The translations under genes and the position numbers were made by a program. Positions 2,323 through 8,097 of a DNA stretch of 16,000 nt are shown here, in pieces. The notes below the pieces were generated by a model. That model ran no database searches. It was not told where the DNA came from and saw only the letters and a list, made by a program, of their open reading frames with translations. The DNA comes from Elusimicrobiota bacterium (GTDB lineage: Bacteria; Elusimicrobiota; Elusimicrobia; UBA1565; UBA9628): contig DAHVNA010000039.1 in the NCBI GenBank assembly GCA_027319565.1, positions 1 to 16,000 of the forward strand, given 5' to 3'. Within the stretch, counting starts at the first letter, position 1. The number at the start of each line of letters is the position of its first letter.

Positions 2323-2345
2323 AACAAAACAAGGAGAGAAATCCT

Positions 2346-3245
2346 ATGGCATTTAAAAGAAAAGAGACGGTTATCGAAGCGATCGACTTAAATACCATCA
2401 CGACTGAAGACGCGGAAAGCCGCATCATCGCCGGCGTCAAGAAATACGCCACCAACGAGCCCAATTGGTCAAAGGCAGACACCAACACCCCTTATCTCGG
2501 CCATATTATAGGAATGGGAATTGAATCCGCCAATCTCGCCGATATCACGATGTCTATTGAAAGGCAATTCTTAACCAAGAAAACCCATCGCGTTCCGATT
2601 GAGGGAACCAATGATTTTCGCTTGGAAGACGGCGAGCTGGGAAAACTCCGAATTTTAGACGGTCAAGACGCCACCGCCGCGACCCCCGGACTTTCGGTTA
2701 AAATGCTGATGGATTTGGGGCATATGCCGAAAAACGACTCTTATTTATCCAAGGTCGTCGGTTTTGCCTATATCTCCAGCTTTGGAGAAGGCTACCGCCT
2801 CAATGAATCTCTCAAAAAATTGATGAACCGCATTGATAAATTGGCCGGCAATGAAAAGGCGGAAGCGATCCAAAATCTAAAGACGATGATCTCTCAAGCC
2901 AAAAGCTATCTCAGCGACATCTCGGACTCTAAGCGTTTCGCCGACTCAAAGCAAAAAGCCTACGAGACCGATAAAGCCGCCCACGACAACCTCACCCGAG
3001 AATTGTCTCTTCTTCAAGATAAAATCAAGGGATTGTCCTCCTCCAACGATCATGAAAAGGTTTCCGCCCTTAACGCGGAATTAGCCGAGTTAAAAACGCG
3101 CCTCAAAATGAGCTCCGATAAGTTGCGGGTATCTTCTGAAATCGCTTCTTGCGCGGCCCGGCGCTCTCCGATAGAAGAGGCCAAGGTCCTTGAGATCGCC
3201 TCTTTAATCTCTTCCACGGTTTCTCAAGCGGAAAAGATTTCTTAA
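2346..3245 (+). CDS. Uncharacterised protein: putative divergent ACP-like (phosphopantetheine-binding) N-terminal domain plus C-terminal coiled coil
   Basis: Strong SD (AAGGAG) before the ATG, so the CDS itself is well supported. Residues ~23-100 align by eye with ACP: AESRIIAGVKKY (helix I), GMGIESANLADITMSIERQF (cf. LGADSLDTVELVMALEEEF) and FRLEDGELGKL (cf. IEIPDEEAEKI). Residues ~150-299 are heptad-rich and helical. The neighbouring genes encode a PPTase and FabD. Confidence 0.6.
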   Translation: MAFKRKETVIEAIDLNTITTEDAESRIIAGVKKYATNEPNWSKADTNTPYLGHIIGMGIESANLADITMSIERQFLTKKTHRVPIEGTNDFRLEDGELGKLRILDGQDATAATPGLSVKMLMDLGHMPKNDSYLSKVVGFAYISSFGEGYRLNESLKKLMNRIDKLAGNEKAEAIQNLKTMISQAKSYLSDISDSKRFADSKQKAYETDKAAHDNLTRELSLLQDKIKGLSSSNDHEKVSALNAELAELKTRLKMSSDKLRVSSEIASCAARRSPIEEAKVLEIASLISSTVSQAEKIS

Positions 3246-3262
3246 GGGCTGTCTTATAAGAC

Positions 3263-4663
3263 GTGCTCTCGGATTGCGCCGTAAATAGGCTTCGCCGCCA
3301 GCGTTTTTTGAGTTCACTGTCCGCGGGGGCGGTTTATCTCGTTATTCTCGCCTTTTTGCGCTTTTACCTTCGCTACAACATCCAAAATCTCAAATCCTTC
3401 CGAAAGCAAGTGCGCAAGGCTCTTCAAGATCACACGGGGCCTGTCATCTGGGCCGCCAACCATCTAACGATGATCGATTCCTTCCTTATTTTCTGGGCGG
3501 CCTCTCCTTGGACCCAGGCGATGCGCGATTCCTCCATCCCCTGGTCGACGCCTGAAATAGAGAATTATTACTATCTGGGAGGCTGGTTCAAGAAAAATTT
3601 AATACGCGGCCTCATCTACCTTTGCCGCTGCATTCCGATTTCGCGATCCGGGGATGGAGAAGACGCGCAAAAAGGGCGCCAAGAAGTTTTTGAGAAGTGC
3701 GTTTGGATTTTAAAAAATAGCGGACCCGTTTTTGTTTTTCCGGAGGCGACGAGATCCCGGCACGGCTGGTTTAATCGGCATAAACCCAAGGACTTTTTGG
3801 GGCGACTGGCCCTTGAAGTTCCAAACGCGAAGTTTTTCTGCGTCTATTTCCGGGGAGAAAACCAGCTCTACTCCACCGCCGCGCCAATGAAGGGCGAATC
3901 CTTCCGCGCCTATTTCAAGGTGGTTCCCGCGGTTTTAGAAGGAGAAAAATCTCCCCGGCAGATTTCCGAAAGGCTCTTCAATATTTTAGGCGATTTGCAG
4001 GACCAATGGTTTCAACAGTCCGCCATGATTAAAAATTGTTCCGGCAACGACCTCATCGATCTTAAAGCGCCCGTGGCTCTAGAACATTTTGAAGAAGAAA
4101 ATGAAGAAAACACGGAGTGGATTTTGCGCCATTTAACCGACAAGGAAGCCTCTTATTGGAAAAATCAGCCCCCGGAAAAGCGTTTTTCCGTTTTCTGGAA
4201 AATTTTCGCCGCGAAAGAGGCGGCATCAAAGGCTCTTGAAAGATCCGGGATTTTTATTCCCTTTGGCGCTTTTCGCTCTTTTGAAACCGATCTCTTTACC
4301 AACCACATCACCCATCGCCCCACCGGAATTAGGCTCTCCCTTGCGTTCACCGATGAGGATCAAGACAAAATCCATTGCATTGCCGTCTTAAGAGGAGGCG
4401 TCATGGGAGACGAACACATCCCGGGAGACATTCTTTGGTCTATCGAGCAATTGCCGCCTAATACCAACCCCAGCGAATTTGTCCGCGAGCGCGCGCTTAA
4501 TTTTATCGCGGAATCATCCGATGACATTCTCTCTCCGGCGAGCCTGGCTCTTTCGGTTCACAACGGTCTTCCGGTCATCTACCGAAGCGGACGCTCCTTG
4601 GACATCAGCCTCTCTCTCTCTCATAGCGGGCGATACGCCGCCTTAAGCTTCATGATCTCATAA
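3263..4663 (+). CDS. Fusion of PlsC-like (LPLAT) acyltransferase and 4'-phosphopantetheinyl transferase (ACPS superfamily)
   Basis: N-terminal hydrophobic helix; catalytic NH67LTMID72 (HX4D), CIPISR and VFVFPEATRS (FPEGTRS-like). C-terminal half has G261NDLID, RHLTDKE, FAAK318E319AASKAL and ISLSLSH454SGRYAA. The GTG start is uncertain (weak SD). Confidence 0.88.
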   Translation: MLSDCAVNRLRRQRFLSSLSAGAVYLVILAFLRFYLRYNIQNLKSFRKQVRKALQDHTGPVIWAANHLTMIDSFLIFWAASPWTQAMRDSSIPWSTPEIENYYYLGGWFKKNLIRGLIYLCRCIPISRSGDGEDAQKGRQEVFEKCVWILKNSGPVFVFPEATRSRHGWFNRHKPKDFLGRLALEVPNAKFFCVYFRGENQLYSTAAPMKGESFRAYFKVVPAVLEGEKSPRQISERLFNILGDLQDQWFQQSAMIKNCSGNDLIDLKAPVALEHFEEENEENTEWILRHLTDKEASYWKNQPPEKRFSVFWKIFAAKEAASKALERSGIFIPFGAFRSFETDLFTNHITHRPTGIRLSLAFTDEDQDKIHCIAVLRGGVMGDEHIPGDILWSIEQLPPNTNPSEFVRERALNFIAESSDDILSPASLALSVHNGLPVIYRSGRSLDISLSLSHSGRYAALSFMIS

Positions 4664-4675
4664 AGGAAAAATGCG

Positions 4676-5617
4676 ATGGAAAAAAAATATTGCGTCCTGT
4701 TTGCTGGTCAATCCGTTCAGGAATCCGGCATGGGAAAAGATCTCCTCAAAATTCCCGCCGCCAAAGACGTTCTCTCGCGCCTTAAGCCCTTTCTGGGCGA
4801 AGACCTGGAATACCTGCTCGCCGAAATGCCGGACCCGGAATTGGCCCTGACTTTTAACGCCCAGCGCGCCATTCACGCTCATCATCTGGCGAATTATTTC
4901 GCCTACAAAGCGGCTCATCCGGAACTCATCCTCAACGGCGCCCTCGGGCATTCCATGGGAATTGTCGCGGCCTTGGTCGCCGCAGAATCAATCAGCGTGG
5001 AAGACTCCGGGAAATTTATTTTCGCCCGCGCCCAAGCTTTTTCTAAAGCTTGCAAAACTTTTACGGCTCCGATGGGACTGGCTTCGGTCAGCGCGGATGA
5101 TTTTAAAGACGTGGTTGACGAAGTCGCGCACTTTGCCCCCATTTCCGTCGCCCTTTACAACACCAAAAAGCGCGGGGTCTTGGGCGGAACCATGGCCGAG
5201 CTAGAGAACTTCGCCCAAAAAGCCCGAGAAGAAGACTGGCCGGTCCGTATTAAAATCCTTAAAGTCGAGGGACCATATCACACGAAGGCCTTTACGCCCT
5301 GCCGCGCCGAATTAGACCGCGCTTTATCCGCCATTGAAATCAAGCCGCCCAAAGCGCCGGTTTTCATGGGAACCTCCGGACAGGCCGAAAAAGATCCGGA
5401 GCGGATCCGCCGCCTTTTGTCCTCGCAAGCCGATTCCTCCGAACTCTATCTCCAGGCCGTTCAATCAGCATATTCGGCCGGCTGCCGAGACTTTATCGAA
5501 ATCGCCTACAAGCCCCAGCCCATCACCTGGATTCCCGAGCAGTTGATTTCGGAAGACGGCGCTTTATTTGAAGGCGTCACGACCAGCGCGATTAAAACGG
5601 AAGATATTCTCGCCTAA
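4676..5617 (+). CDS. fabD: Malonyl-CoA:ACP transacylase (FabD-like acyltransferase)
   Basis: LFAGQSVQ (FPGQGSQ-like), AQRAI, catalytic GHS93MG, conserved Arg in FARAQAF, LKVEGPYHT (GAFHS-like) and C-terminal FIEI; SD AAGGA upstream. Confidence 0.88.
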   Translation: MEKKYCVLFAGQSVQESGMGKDLLKIPAAKDVLSRLKPFLGEDLEYLLAEMPDPELALTFNAQRAIHAHHLANYFAYKAAHPELILNGALGHSMGIVAALVAAESISVEDSGKFIFARAQAFSKACKTFTAPMGLASVSADDFKDVVDEVAHFAPISVALYNTKKRGVLGGTMAELENFAQKAREEDWPVRIKILKVEGPYHTKAFTPCRAELDRALSAIEIKPPKAPVFMGTSGQAEKDPERIRRLLSSQADSSELYLQAVQSAYSAGCRDFIEIAYKPQPITWIPEQLISEDGALFEGVTTSAIKTEDILA

Positions 5618-5638: not shown

Positions 5639-6478
5639 TTACGTCAACCCAGCTTGGCGGAACGCGCGGCGCACGGATTGGAAGACTTCATCAAATTCGG
5701 GAAGGGTCGCCATCTGAGACGCGAGACGTTTTTCCCACAAGGCCTTGAGTCGCGCTTCTTTAGCCTGCAACTCGCCACGCACGGCATCTAGTTTCTTGCC
5801 GCGGAATTCTAACTTCTCTTCAATCGCCCCAAAGATCTCGCCAAGTGCGACGTAATTATTCTCGGTCATATGCCAGATATCGTAAAGGTCTCGGGGCTCG
5901 TTTCGAGCCTTATCCATTAATGCAATCGCTTTCTCTGACGCAATCTCATTGAGAGAATAGACGTGGAGCTTGCTGTCCTCTGGCAGGTCGGCGTATTCTT
6001 CGTAGCCGCGAAGGACGGGGAGTTGCTCAATCTCGAAGACGAGCTTCTCCTTGATCGTGACATCTACCTTAACCTCTTTGACGGAACCTGTCGCAGGGAT
6101 AGGTCCTACGTAGCTGAGGTAAAACGTATGGCTGTTCTGATGGCTGTTCCGGTCCTCGCGCTGAAATTGAAACACGACCCCCGAGGCGCTTTGGACTCGT
6201 GCGAAGACGGGTTTGAGTCCTTCCTGGATCGCTTCGAATGTCGTGTCCTGGGCTAGCGTGAAGTCGAGGTCTTCAGAGAAGCGGTAATCCGCGAAGTGGC
6301 AGCGTTTGAGCGCGGTCCCACCTTTGAATACGAGACGTTGGCCGAGATATTCCTGTGAGAGCGCAATGAGAAACCAAGCTAGACAATAGTCTCGCTCAAG
6401 GACCGACTCCGGGATTCGACGGCCGCCACCTTTGGCCAGGCGGTTCGCTAGGAGTGAGAGGTTTCGCTGGGCGATCAT
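5639..6478 (-). CDS. abiEii: Type IV TA toxin, AbiEii/AbiGii nucleotidyltransferase (DUF1814 family)
   Basis: LERDY, VFKGGTALKRCHFADYRFSEDLDF, VKVDVT, EIASEKAIAL and R..PRDLYD motifs; begins 3 nt after the antitoxin stop. Confidence 0.93.
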   Translation of the reverse strand: MIAQRNLSLLANRLAKGGGRRIPESVLERDYCLAWFLIALSQEYLGQRLVFKGGTALKRCHFADYRFSEDLDFTLAQDTTFEAIQEGLKPVFARVQSASGVVFQFQREDRNSHQNSHTFYLSYVGPIPATGSVKEVKVDVTIKEKLVFEIEQLPVLRGYEEYADLPEDSKLHVYSLNEIASEKAIALMDKARNEPRDLYDIWHMTENNYVALGEIFGAIEEKLEFRGKKLDAVRGELQAKEARLKALWEKRLASQMATLPEFDEVFQSVRRAFRQAGLT

Positions 6479-6481
6479 GGG

Positions 6482-7312
6482 TTAGGTGTGCAAGACGGCG
6501 CGGAGTTCCTCGGCGGCGACGTTGAGCTGCAATCGCCATTTCGAAATAAACTTGCCTTCTCGAGGCAGCATCGGATCGAGCAGCGCGTAGGCTGACCCCA
6601 GCTTCTGGCGAAGCGCGTCCAAATCGCTCGGGGTTCCGATCTCGAGGATTTCCATGAGATAGCCTAGGCGTCCGAGCGCAGAGCCGAAGTCCAGCCGAAG
6701 TGCATATTCGACCAGCTTCTTCATGTTGATATCGGATCGCCGCATCCAAAATCCTTTAGCGACTTCGGTGATGCCGCCGCAGTGTTTCGGCTGGCGAACG
6801 CCATCAAGCACCGTTCGCTCCAAATCGCTGACCCAGACCTTTTCCTCGTTGGTCGCCCAATGCTCGGCGAGGCCGAAGAAACGCGCGGGAGGACAGCGGA
6901 CGAAGTGAAATTGGGCGCCGAAAATTGTGCGGCCCAAAGGAGGATTGGGAGAGGTCGCGTAGACCACGAGTTGAGGCTGTGTGGTCATACGATGAATCTC
7001 CATTGCGGACGCATGGGAAATATAGTATTTATGGTCGCGCAGCAACTCTCGCGCCACGACATAGGGATTGCCCAAATATTCCTTCTCCTGGCCAAGCTCG
7101 AACGGAACGAGGTTGAACAAGCCCGGACGCAGGCGCGCGGCGACGCCGCGGCTGACCAATGCGCGGATGAAGCTACGCGCGGAGGGCGCTTTCAAGCCCG
7201 TGATCTCGACAACCTCGGGCAGAGCGAAGATAAGGTGGCGCCGCTCCTGTAGCTTTGAAAGGAGCTTAGCCGCTTGAGGGCCAACAGTCTTCAAGTGAGT
7301 ATTCTGTTCCAT
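6482..7312 (-). CDS. abiEi: Type IV TA antitoxin AbiEi family transcriptional regulator
   Basis: N-terminal winged-HTH-like segment (ALPEVVEITGL...IRALVSRGVAARLRPGLFNLVP), YYISHASAMEIHRMTTQ and VSDLERTVLDG. Start placed at ATG 7312 (SD GGGGA) because the promoter predicts a TSS near 7326. Confidence 0.9.
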   Translation of the reverse strand: MEQNTHLKTVGPQAAKLLSKLQERRHLIFALPEVVEITGLKAPSARSFIRALVSRGVAARLRPGLFNLVPFELGQEKEYLGNPYVVARELLRDHKYYISHASAMEIHRMTTQPQLVVYATSPNPPLGRTIFGAQFHFVRCPPARFFGLAEHWATNEEKVWVSDLERTVLDGVRQPKHCGGITEVAKGFWMRRSDINMKKLVEYALRLDFGSALGRLGYLMEILEIGTPSDLDALRQKLGSAYALLDPMLPREGKFISKWRLQLNVAAEELRAVLHT

Positions 7313-7338
7313 AATGTGCTTCCCCAATGCACATTATG
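7310..7338. promoter_or_regulatory. Palindromic operator 1 (putative AbiEi site)
   Basis: Perfect 10-bp inverted repeat CATAATGTGC-N9-GCACATTATG covering the -10 box, the SD and the start codon. Confidence 0.75.
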
Positions 7339-7670: not shown

Positions 7671-7988
7671 TTATCCGTTGTTGTGCGCGGCTTTGAACAG
7701 ACCTTTTAGATTCATTAGTGAAACTCGAATAGTCCGAGTTTTGATTTCACCTGCGGCTTGCCGCAAGTCCAGGCTTTTTCGCAAGTCTTGGAAGTCCTCA
7801 ACCTTAAAATCACTAAGACTTTGGAGCGCTCGCTCTGGATGGGCTTTAACGACCTCGCGACAAAGCGCCGCAAAAGCGTTGCGATAACCGTCTGCCGTCC
7901 CTGGGCTTAAGGGTTCGCCGCTCCGCTGGTTGCGATAGGCGGCGATCACTCGCTCAAGTTGATCTAAAAGGCGCTCTTGCGTTTTCAT
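7671..7988 (-). pseudogene. Tyrosine recombinase/integrase N-terminal core-binding (SAM-like) domain only; truncated remnant or stand-alone small protein
   Basis: GGAGG SD before ATG 7988; 105 aa. LSPGTADGYRNAF, LSDFKVEDFQDLRKSL and KTRTIRVSLMNLKGLFKAAHNNG match the core-binding-domain pattern. The stop falls at the domain end and no recognisable catalytic domain follows. Confidence 0.65.
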
Positions 7989-8097
7989 AGCGCCTCCGAT
8001 GTCAAAAACGCACACAAAAGCGCACACTTAAAACCAATGATTTTTTGGAAAATGAATTTTCCCAATCCTCGAAGAAATCCATTTTCAGAGGGAAAAA

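Follow-up and report, generated by a model that had tools for sequence, protein, structure and literature searches.

Organization of the locus

Within the window, i.e. the whole stretch of 16,000 nucleotides of DNA that was analyzed, three genes on the plus strand encode a protein of 299 amino acids, a fusion of a lipid acyltransferase with a phosphopantetheinyl transferase (PPTase) and a FabD-like malonyl-CoA:ACP transacylase (Table 1). The product of the first gene is here designated ACPX, and the genome, with a completeness of 91.65%, is designated G000. Judged from its sequence and predicted models, this protein, which occurs in uncultured Elusimicrobia, is probably a carrier of enlarged size that standard annotation overlooks. 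The earlier note had located a putative carrier serine, Ser61, at the TCC codon 2526-2528, which is correct in ORF 2346-3245 of the plus strand; the stretch around this residue reads GMGIESANLADITMSIERQF. A promoter scan yielded no sigma-70-like site on the plus strand upstream of the ACPX gene, and no membrane span was predicted in ACPX.

Table 1. Features of the ACPX gene and its downstream neighbors in the window.
Feature	Position	Strand	Length or basis
Shine-Dalgarno-like AGGAG, 9 nt 5′ of ATG	2332..2336	+	sequence
ACPX, putative enlarged acyl carrier protein (ACP domain, beta-hairpin insertion and C-terminal helical domain)	2346..3245	+	299 aa
ACP-fold domain, predicted, residues 18-128	2397..2729	+	VIA-align of full model versus 1x3o
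Helix I, residues 20-34	2403..2447	+	predicted; ungapped with small-ACP helix I, motif removed, P 9e-4
Ser61, predicted phosphopantetheine attachment site, start of helix II	2526..2528	+	conservation; alignment with E. coli AcpP serine
Helix II, residues 61-74, most conserved region	2526..2567	+	predicted model, conservation
Beta-hairpin insertion, between helix II and helix-III region	2571..2645	+	models, alignment
Helix-III region (I103-T113) and helix IV (114-123)	2652..2714	+	models, alignment
C-terminal helical domain, residues 139-299	2760..3242	+	predicted helical bundle with long alpha-hairpin
HX4D lipid acyltransferase (PF01553; H67-D72)-PPTase (PF01648) fusion	3263..4663	+	466 aa; Pfam, motifs
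PPTase part of fusion, GND..D and KEA..K	about 4034-4660	+	PF01648, motifs
FabD-like malonyl-CoA:ACP transacylase, GHSMG	4676..5617	+	313 aa; Pfam, motif

After fabD, an AbiEii gene (PF08843, 132 bits) and an AbiEi-like gene scoring below cut-off form a pair of raised GC content on the minus strand (5639-7327). The pair looks like a recent insertion, since a PBP gene lies less than 200 bp after fabD in L008, a close relative. In the window, a 118-aa ORF (7671-8027, minus strand) separates the Abi pair from the PBP gene; no Pfam match was obtained for it at E<=10.

Conservation of the serine motif

A total of 257 homologs of ACPX were found at E<=0.001, corresponding to 24 representatives after clustering at 50%, and most of those that carry a name come from Elusimicrobia. 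Conservation was analyzed in an alignment of 128 sequences comprising the window protein, 120 listed of the 257 homologs and 7 distant ones. Ser61, the residue singled out by the earlier note, was conserved in all 128 and was the sole invariant serine; the only further invariant columns were G96, I103 and T113. Three of these columns (S61, I103 and T113) map to ACP S36, I54 and T64, where I54 and T64 are given in the mature numbering of E. coli AcpP, and the serine of E. coli AcpP aligns with ACPX Ser61. Conservation averaged 0.98 over residues 57-75, versus 0.59-0.76 in the tail. The pattern G-x-[DE]-S-x7-M-x-[LI]-E-x-x-F was found in only 2 of the 9,834 six-frame ORFs of G000 (1.27 million residues), namely ACPX and the canonical AcpP; thus, the claimed spacing of ACP helix II is beyond chance within this genome. 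The change from DSL to ESA that had been described is present in the window protein, but it is the variant of G000, position 62 being Ser in 119 of the 128 sequences and Ala in 9. Helix II of ACPX carries a net charge of -2 versus -6 for the same 16 residues of E. coli AcpP, and residues 12-125 carry -5, while E. coli AcpP carries -15. The most distant full-length homolog (P0139, 288 aa) keeps the serine, reads D-I-P-S and has the tail together with an insertion of 5 residues only, which suggests that the tail may have arisen earlier than the long hairpin.

Profile searches and class assignment

Searches with the Pfam and NCBIfam ACP profiles yielded no match to ACPX even at E<=10, either for the full protein or for residues 15-150, and five distant homologs gave no PF00550 or TIGR00517 match at E<=0.01. 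In the G000 genome, the ACP profiles retrieved the canonical AcpP only, which is encoded by a gene separate from ACPX. ACPs were absent from the matches of PDB sequence searches with ACPX alignments, and the ESM Atlas gave no usable match for residues 10-150 or for whole ACPX, a result that shows neither absence nor novelty. ACPX lies below the curated PF00550/TIGR00517 cut-off and therefore is not a member of the family as curated. Canonical AcpP is characterized by D-S-L, a strongly acidic character and about 80 aa; ACPX has E-S-[SA]-N, a net charge of -5 and 299 aa. Because of these profile and motif results, ACPX was filed neither as AcpP nor under PF00550.

Predicted fold of the carrier domain

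The AlphaFold2 model of full-length ACPX had a mean pLDDT of 91.7 and contained helices at residues 20-34, 38-42, 61-74 and 114-123, and a further five long helices spanning residues 140-298. A beta-hairpin is formed by strands 75-84 and 91-100, and this pairing was seen both in the full model and in a model of residues 10-136. Aligned by VIA-align with the T. thermophilus ACP 1x3o, the full model gave Z 9.3 and an rmsd of 2.0 Å over 80 of 80 residues, the alignment covering model residues 18-128. The predicted model thus contains the helical bundle I, II, (III), IV, in which the invariant serine marks the N-terminus of helix II: the helix-I-like segment reported ahead of the motif corresponds to predicted helix 20-34, and Ser61 opens helix 61-74.

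Foldseek returned no match at E<=0.001 for the full model or for the 10-136 model, so the ACP-like fold expected in the earlier note was borne out by the alignment of the full model with 1x3o but not by Foldseek at this threshold. All listed rows of the 10-136 model with a target TM-score >0.45 were chains of 75-89 residues, either ACPs by title or ACP-sized chains of complex I, supercomplexes or mitoribosomes. The full model matched mostly coiled coils, with ACP chains (9ihq_T among them) at ranks 38 and 44. For the isolated N-domain, VIA-align against ACP-size chains gave Z 5.3-5.6, within the range that the tool calls common. When the N-domain was searched against 48,161 chains without Foldseek, carriers or carrier-holding complexes made up most of the 50 rows listed; the best Z was 5.4, and the top four included an ATP-synthase subunit and a protein of the mitoribosome. 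Residues 50-61 had pLDDT <50 in the isolated domain and were confident in the full model, the underlying alignments holding 69 versus 128 sequences; the tail may support loop I in the models.

In an alignment of ACPX with small ACPs, the G000 AcpP and E. coli AcpP, the helix-III region I103-T113 aligned with I54-T64 of E. coli AcpP. Therefore, the hairpin insertion comprises 24 extra residues in ACPX, and not the 12-15 aa proposed before; it comprises 12 residues in P0128, 9 in P0131 and 5 in P0139. The segment FRLEDGELGKL had been taken for the helix-III equivalent, and residues 91-100 are instead a beta-strand that pairs with 75-84 in both models. Likewise, the domain extends to about residue 128 (nt 2729) rather than ending at 2660. 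The C-terminal domain gave generic helical structural matches only, with Z up to 11.7, which lies below the caution level set for helical bundles. Matches of the tail to pore-forming toxins or SMC proteins were rejected as chance rows, with an rmsd of 7-20 Å or confined to the hairpin.

Operon context and neighboring enzymes

The genomic context was surveyed at 70 ACPX loci from other genomes. A FabF-like gene was located within 2 kb upstream of ACPX at 62 of the 69 loci with upstream sequence (the exceptions being L008-L011, L016, L031 and L075), and the PPTase or its fusion lay directly downstream at all 67 loci with downstream sequence, including L064, L068, L069 and L075, where the PPTase is a stand-alone gene. 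The genes are usually arranged as fabL/I-fabH-fabG-fabZ-fabF-ACPX-(acyltransferase-)PPTase-fabD. No canonical ACP was found at the 70 loci, the best E value of 1.1 belonging to ACPX itself, and a FabA-like gene was present at 11 of them. In G000, the operon is split in three, with five genes in C45:36547-40980 (FabH-, FabF-, FabG-, FabZ- and FabL-like), FabA-like and FabZ-like genes in C28 (L082:4547-6217) and three genes at 2346-5617 of the window; the upstream genes of the same operon in relatives are those found on C45 and C28. A 396-aa protein of C28 resembles a doubled FabA domain and has relatives at 11 of the 70 loci. The arrangement of ACPX adjoining pal is common to L008-L011 and G000. 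A 'ketosynthase-free acyl relay' was rejected, as ketosynthases are encoded on C45 in G000 and directly upstream in most relatives.

The catalytic motifs of the operon partners are intact. The PPTase neighbor scored 32.5 bits with PF01648 (cut-off 25), contains the G-x-D and K-E-A motifs and has AcpS proteins as its best solved relatives. Among 55 aligned PPTase domains G-N-D and K-E-A were invariant (55/55), the domains having been extracted with that same pattern. These sequence data are consistent with a co-encoded PPTase that would be dedicated to ACPX. In the PPTase domain, of about 210 aa, G-N-D and K-E-A lie within the first half, S-H-S-G being located at the far end, so that the domain looks like a two-lobed enzyme with the lobes in the reverse of the Sfp order. 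When plasmids were searched with the PPTase domain (E 0.01) or with the FabF-like protein (E 1e-60), no match was obtained.

Small sister ACPs and the origin of ACPX

Two other phyla, represented by 201 and 301 genomes, were subjected to a motif-free search in which the operon FabF-like protein was the only query. The search retrieved three already-known ACPX genomes and four new ones, with FabF-like identities of 48-52%. In all four new genomes, the synthase gene is directly followed by one for a protein of 82-83 aa with V-N-S-A-R-L-V-D; a PPTase gene lies after it, with an acyltransferase gene in between in three of the four. All three of these small ACPs that were scanned passed the PF00550 cut-off (4 of 6 small ACPs reached it in another scan), and the profile of the three matched solved ACPs with E values as low as 2.5e-15. 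When aligned with hhalign, ACPX and the three motif-free small ACPs gave a probability of 63% and E 7e-5 with the serines in register; ACPX against canonical AcpP gave 1.9%, and against a motif-selected small-ACP set 90%. When the comparison with the motif-selected set was repeated with the motif left out, register was kept over helix I and loop I, with P 9e-4 and a probability of 23% (P 0.44 and 0.57 in cross controls), and the part after helix II did not align (P 0.24). The pre-motif profile alone failed to single out ACPX among the 9,834 ORFs of G000. A word-indexed search with the 66-aa core against proteins of 36-116 aa gave 8 short matches, which appear to be fragments of the ACPX family, and no small ACP.

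A motif scan of metagenomes covered at least 120 loci and yielded 116 short ORFs with the motif, with the same synthase type upstream in 53 of the 55 with room there and a PPTase downstream in 58 of the 68 with room there; motif likeness within this set was not counted as evidence because the set was chosen by a motif resembling that of ACPX. In one motif-selected operon (L092:1278-2327, the one case scanned), the starter condensing gene was classed by its score as a type III PKS (chalcone-synthase-like). Clusters of this kind are known from Bacteroidota.

A ketosynthase tree with a midpoint root was built from 37 sequences, comprising 18 ACPX-linked and 12 motif-selected enzymes, both sets hand-picked, 4 from the motif-free search and 3 canonical FabF. 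The ACPX-linked enzymes form one clade (95/98) within a subfamily (100/100) that is apart from canonical FabF and whose other members have small ACPs. The ketosynthase of L033 (G166), a genome titled Acidobacteriota, groups with Elusimicrobia (98/95), a placement that is a recent transfer or a binning error. ACPX occupies the same slot as the small ACPs, with a FabF-like gene on one side (on another contig in G000) and a GND-type PPTase/acyltransferase on the other. Helix II of the small sister ACPs shows the same lowered charge, and intermediate insertion lengths of 5, 9 and 12 residues occur between small ACPs and ACPX.

The earlier note had called the domain degenerate, a description that does not fit, since the small sister ACPs already read N-S-A-[NR]-L. 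Because the motif-free genomes hold a VNSARL ACP in the slot, 'ESA' would be an inherited subfamily motif and not a decayed DSL. The motif of ACPX and the PPTase look co-inherited, since the small sister ACPs share N-S-A-[NR]-L and adjoin the same PPTase type. Thus we infer from sequence comparison that ACPX descended from the small-ACP subfamily, and it is likely an enlarged carrier, because an ACP-like predicted fold is combined with a slot that holds an 83-residue carrier in sister operons. The claim of a divergent carrier missed by profiles was therefore upheld by the predicted fold, the invariant serine, the ACP slot of the operon and the lack of a profile match.

Fatty acid gene inventory

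G000 has canonical AcpP, AcpS, FabG, FabZ, LpxA, LpxB and LpxD, and the FabD, FabF and FabH matches found are those of the operon only. The FabD-like gene is the sole PF00698 match of the genome and the fusion its sole PF01553 match. In G000, G150, G151 and G153, four close kin, PlsX and PlsY were not found and the only PF01553 match is the fusion adjoining ACPX; G171, whose genome is complete, has six PF01553 matches, PlsX and PlsY in addition to ACPX. FabF and AcpP were surveyed in 39 of the 70 genomes with an ACPX locus, counts which are not independent because the genomes are incomplete and related. FabF above the TIGR03150 cut-off was present in five of the 39 (G166, G181, G184, G185 and G189), none of which is titled Elusimicrobia and whose titles include Acidobacteriota and Planctomycetota. 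The operon synthase is the sole FabF-like match at E<=1e-20 in G000 and in 9 of the 39 relatives, and canonical AcpP exceeded the cut-off in 35 of the 39. Within the phylum, ACPX occurs sporadically, in 3 of the 151 genomes sampled (G000 included), and G088, a member of the same family without ACPX, has canonical FabF.

Remnants of a canonical fab operon, plsX-fabG-acpP-rnc, are present in G171 (L218) and G088 (L219), and in G000 it is cut down to fabG-acpP-rnc (C111:20033-21858). In four genomes of the same order that have neither ACPX nor a FabF above cut-off (G070, G076, G090 and G142), frames of 2,800-2,970 aa with ketosynthase and acyltransferase matches were found, which may represent a different replacement for the lost canonical fatty acid synthesis (FAS).

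Proposed role of ACPX

On the basis of sequence and models, ACPX is very probably an acyl carrier protein. Given that it is a carrier, it is likely to serve the main membrane fatty acid line in this lineage, and the full reading, i.e. a carrier for the main fatty acid line that grew from an 83-residue carrier through the hairpin and a 160-residue tail, is considered fairly probable. The chemistry of the line is probably ordinary fatty acid synthesis. The functions of FabD, FabF, PPTases, PlsX/Y and LpxA/D are established. The following sequence of events is proposed. The PPTase half of the fusion, with intact motifs and always adjacent, would load phosphopantetheine from CoA onto Ser61, and FabD, encoded two genes on and the only FabD found, would load malonyl. 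The FabH-, FabF-, FabG-, FabZ- and FabL-like enzymes of C45 and the FabA-like enzyme of C28 would then extend the chain. Its transfer to a glycerolipid would be performed by the acyltransferase half of the fusion; apart from this half, no HX4D acyltransferase was found, nor were PlsX and PlsY. In the weakest step, the tail would pack on the carrier domain as a docking or spacer arm and separate this line from AcpP/AcpS, and the canonical AcpP/AcpS would serve lipid A. A more far-reaching proposal is that this Elusimicrobia lineage with its small genomes replaced the AcpP route to membrane lipids, which is nearly universal, with a private ACPX, one bifunctional membrane protein that would both activate and unload it as PPTase and sole glycerolipid acyltransferase (no PlsX, PlsY or PlsB), docking to this protein by the arm and AcpP left for lipid A; this is put forward tentatively and is somewhat unlikely in its full extent.

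According to a different explanation, ACPX would be a true carrier for an accessory or specialized lipid, and bulk synthesis would run on AcpP via the same divergent FabD, FabF and FabH or with imported activated chains. Such a role would fit the retention of canonical AcpP in most of the ACPX genomes surveyed, the presence of AcpS, FabG, FabZ, LpxA and LpxD in G000, the FabA-like gene at some loci and the type III PKS-like gene that replaces FabH in one scanned small-ACP sister operon; furthermore, a Coxiella block with the same gene order is read, by homology, as an unsaturated fatty acid add-on in the accessible part of its description (PMC5423948). In the five genomes with canonical FabF beside the ACPX operon, the operon must be accessory, and an accessory line is the best reading of ACPX wherever canonical FAS exists. 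For G000 and the nine relatives in which the operon synthase is the sole FabF-like match, this explanation is harder to maintain; the sole HX4D acyltransferase of G000 is fused to the operon PPTase, and the presence of a private PPTase and FabD beside ACPX is in keeping with a self-sufficient line. The accessory role is thus regarded as unlikely here, yet it stays alive because ACPX as the sole FAS carrier would not account for the acyl-AcpP needed by LpxA and LpxD for lipid A, and for this reason the same FabD and FabF may load AcpP too. Far less probable is that ACPX keeps an ACP-like fold without phosphopantetheinylation, as a scaffold or regulator of a complex, with the PPTase acting on AcpP. 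Non-carriers with ACP-like folds do occur among the top structural rows (3j6b_8, 8ux4_8 and 6ynx_q), the acidic character is largely gone and a non-ACP helical domain makes up more than half of ACPX; but Ser61 is the sole serine without exception in the alignment, kept even in P0139, no other ACP is encoded at the 70 loci, the AcpP of G000 already has its own AcpS, and the small sister ACPs share the lowered charge of helix II.

With ACPX as the carrier of the main line, an answer would be offered to how fatty acids are synthesized in Elusimicrobia without canonical fabD, fabF and fabH. Few bacterial proteins are as constrained in size and sequence as type II ACPs, and ACPX, as a stand-alone carrier of 3.5-fold the usual size, would show the extent to which the fold can be rebuilt, in a traceable series that leads from an 83-aa ancestor via insertions of 5, 9, 12 and 24 residues and the tail. 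It would also show that a protein central to metabolism can escape annotation in dozens of genomes. Moreover, the ACPX/PPTase pair may be orthogonal to AcpP/AcpS and of use in FAS and PKS engineering.

Comparison with known systems

By title or start of abstract, no description of the ACPX protein or its operon was found in the open-access literature, and literature searches gave none of the small N-S-A-[NR]-L ACPs. The latter share with ACPX the slot, the neighbors, the ketosynthase subfamily and the G-[ND]-D PPTase type, in operons of the order fab(L)-fabH-(fabA)-fabZ-fabF-acp-(plsC)-PPTase (L209-L211, L214/L217 and the 116 metagenome ORFs). They differ from ACPX in that they have 82-87 aa, no hairpin and no tail, and in that acyltransferase and PPTase are separate genes. 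Type II AcpP (E. coli b1094; 1x3o; PF00550, TIGR00517) resembles ACPX in the four-helix arrangement over the whole ACP length, as predicted for ACPX, in the S-x7-M-x-I-E-x-x-F spacing with the serine opening helix II, in the equivalents of I54 and T64, which are invariant in ACPX, and in being a stand-alone gene beside fab genes. In contrast to AcpP, with about 80 aa and D-S-L-D, ACPX has E-S-[SA]-N, is far less acidic, adds a 3-aa insertion in loop I, the 24-aa hairpin insertion and the 160-aa helical tail, lacks a profile match and has its own PPTase.

By gene order, the nearest described block is the Coxiella burnetii cluster CBU_0034-0038, which encodes ACP, FabB and FabZ together with FabA and FabH, with functions assigned by homology, and which is described as horizontally moved (PMC5423948). 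Its order fabH-fabA-fabZ-fabB/F-acp, the only property compared, equals that of the sister operon in L214, and it likewise represents a second FAS block in addition to a vertical one; the accessible part of the source does not mention an enlarged ACP (PMC5423948). A precedent for an enlarged ACP core is the ACP of S. cerevisiae FAS I, which, as far as the consulted part of the source goes, is enlarged by an extra structural subdomain (PMC8683515); it belongs as a domain to a type I megasynthase, whereas ACPX has a gene of its own within a type II operon. In the same phylum, Elusimicrobium minutum is described, in the part of the article considered, as having a Type R Pfa-like synthase, a multidomain type I enzyme with tandem ACPs (PMC3098273). 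This non-canonical fatty acid synthase also has its own PPTase, but its multidomain architecture differs from the dissociated ACPX operon (PMC3098273).
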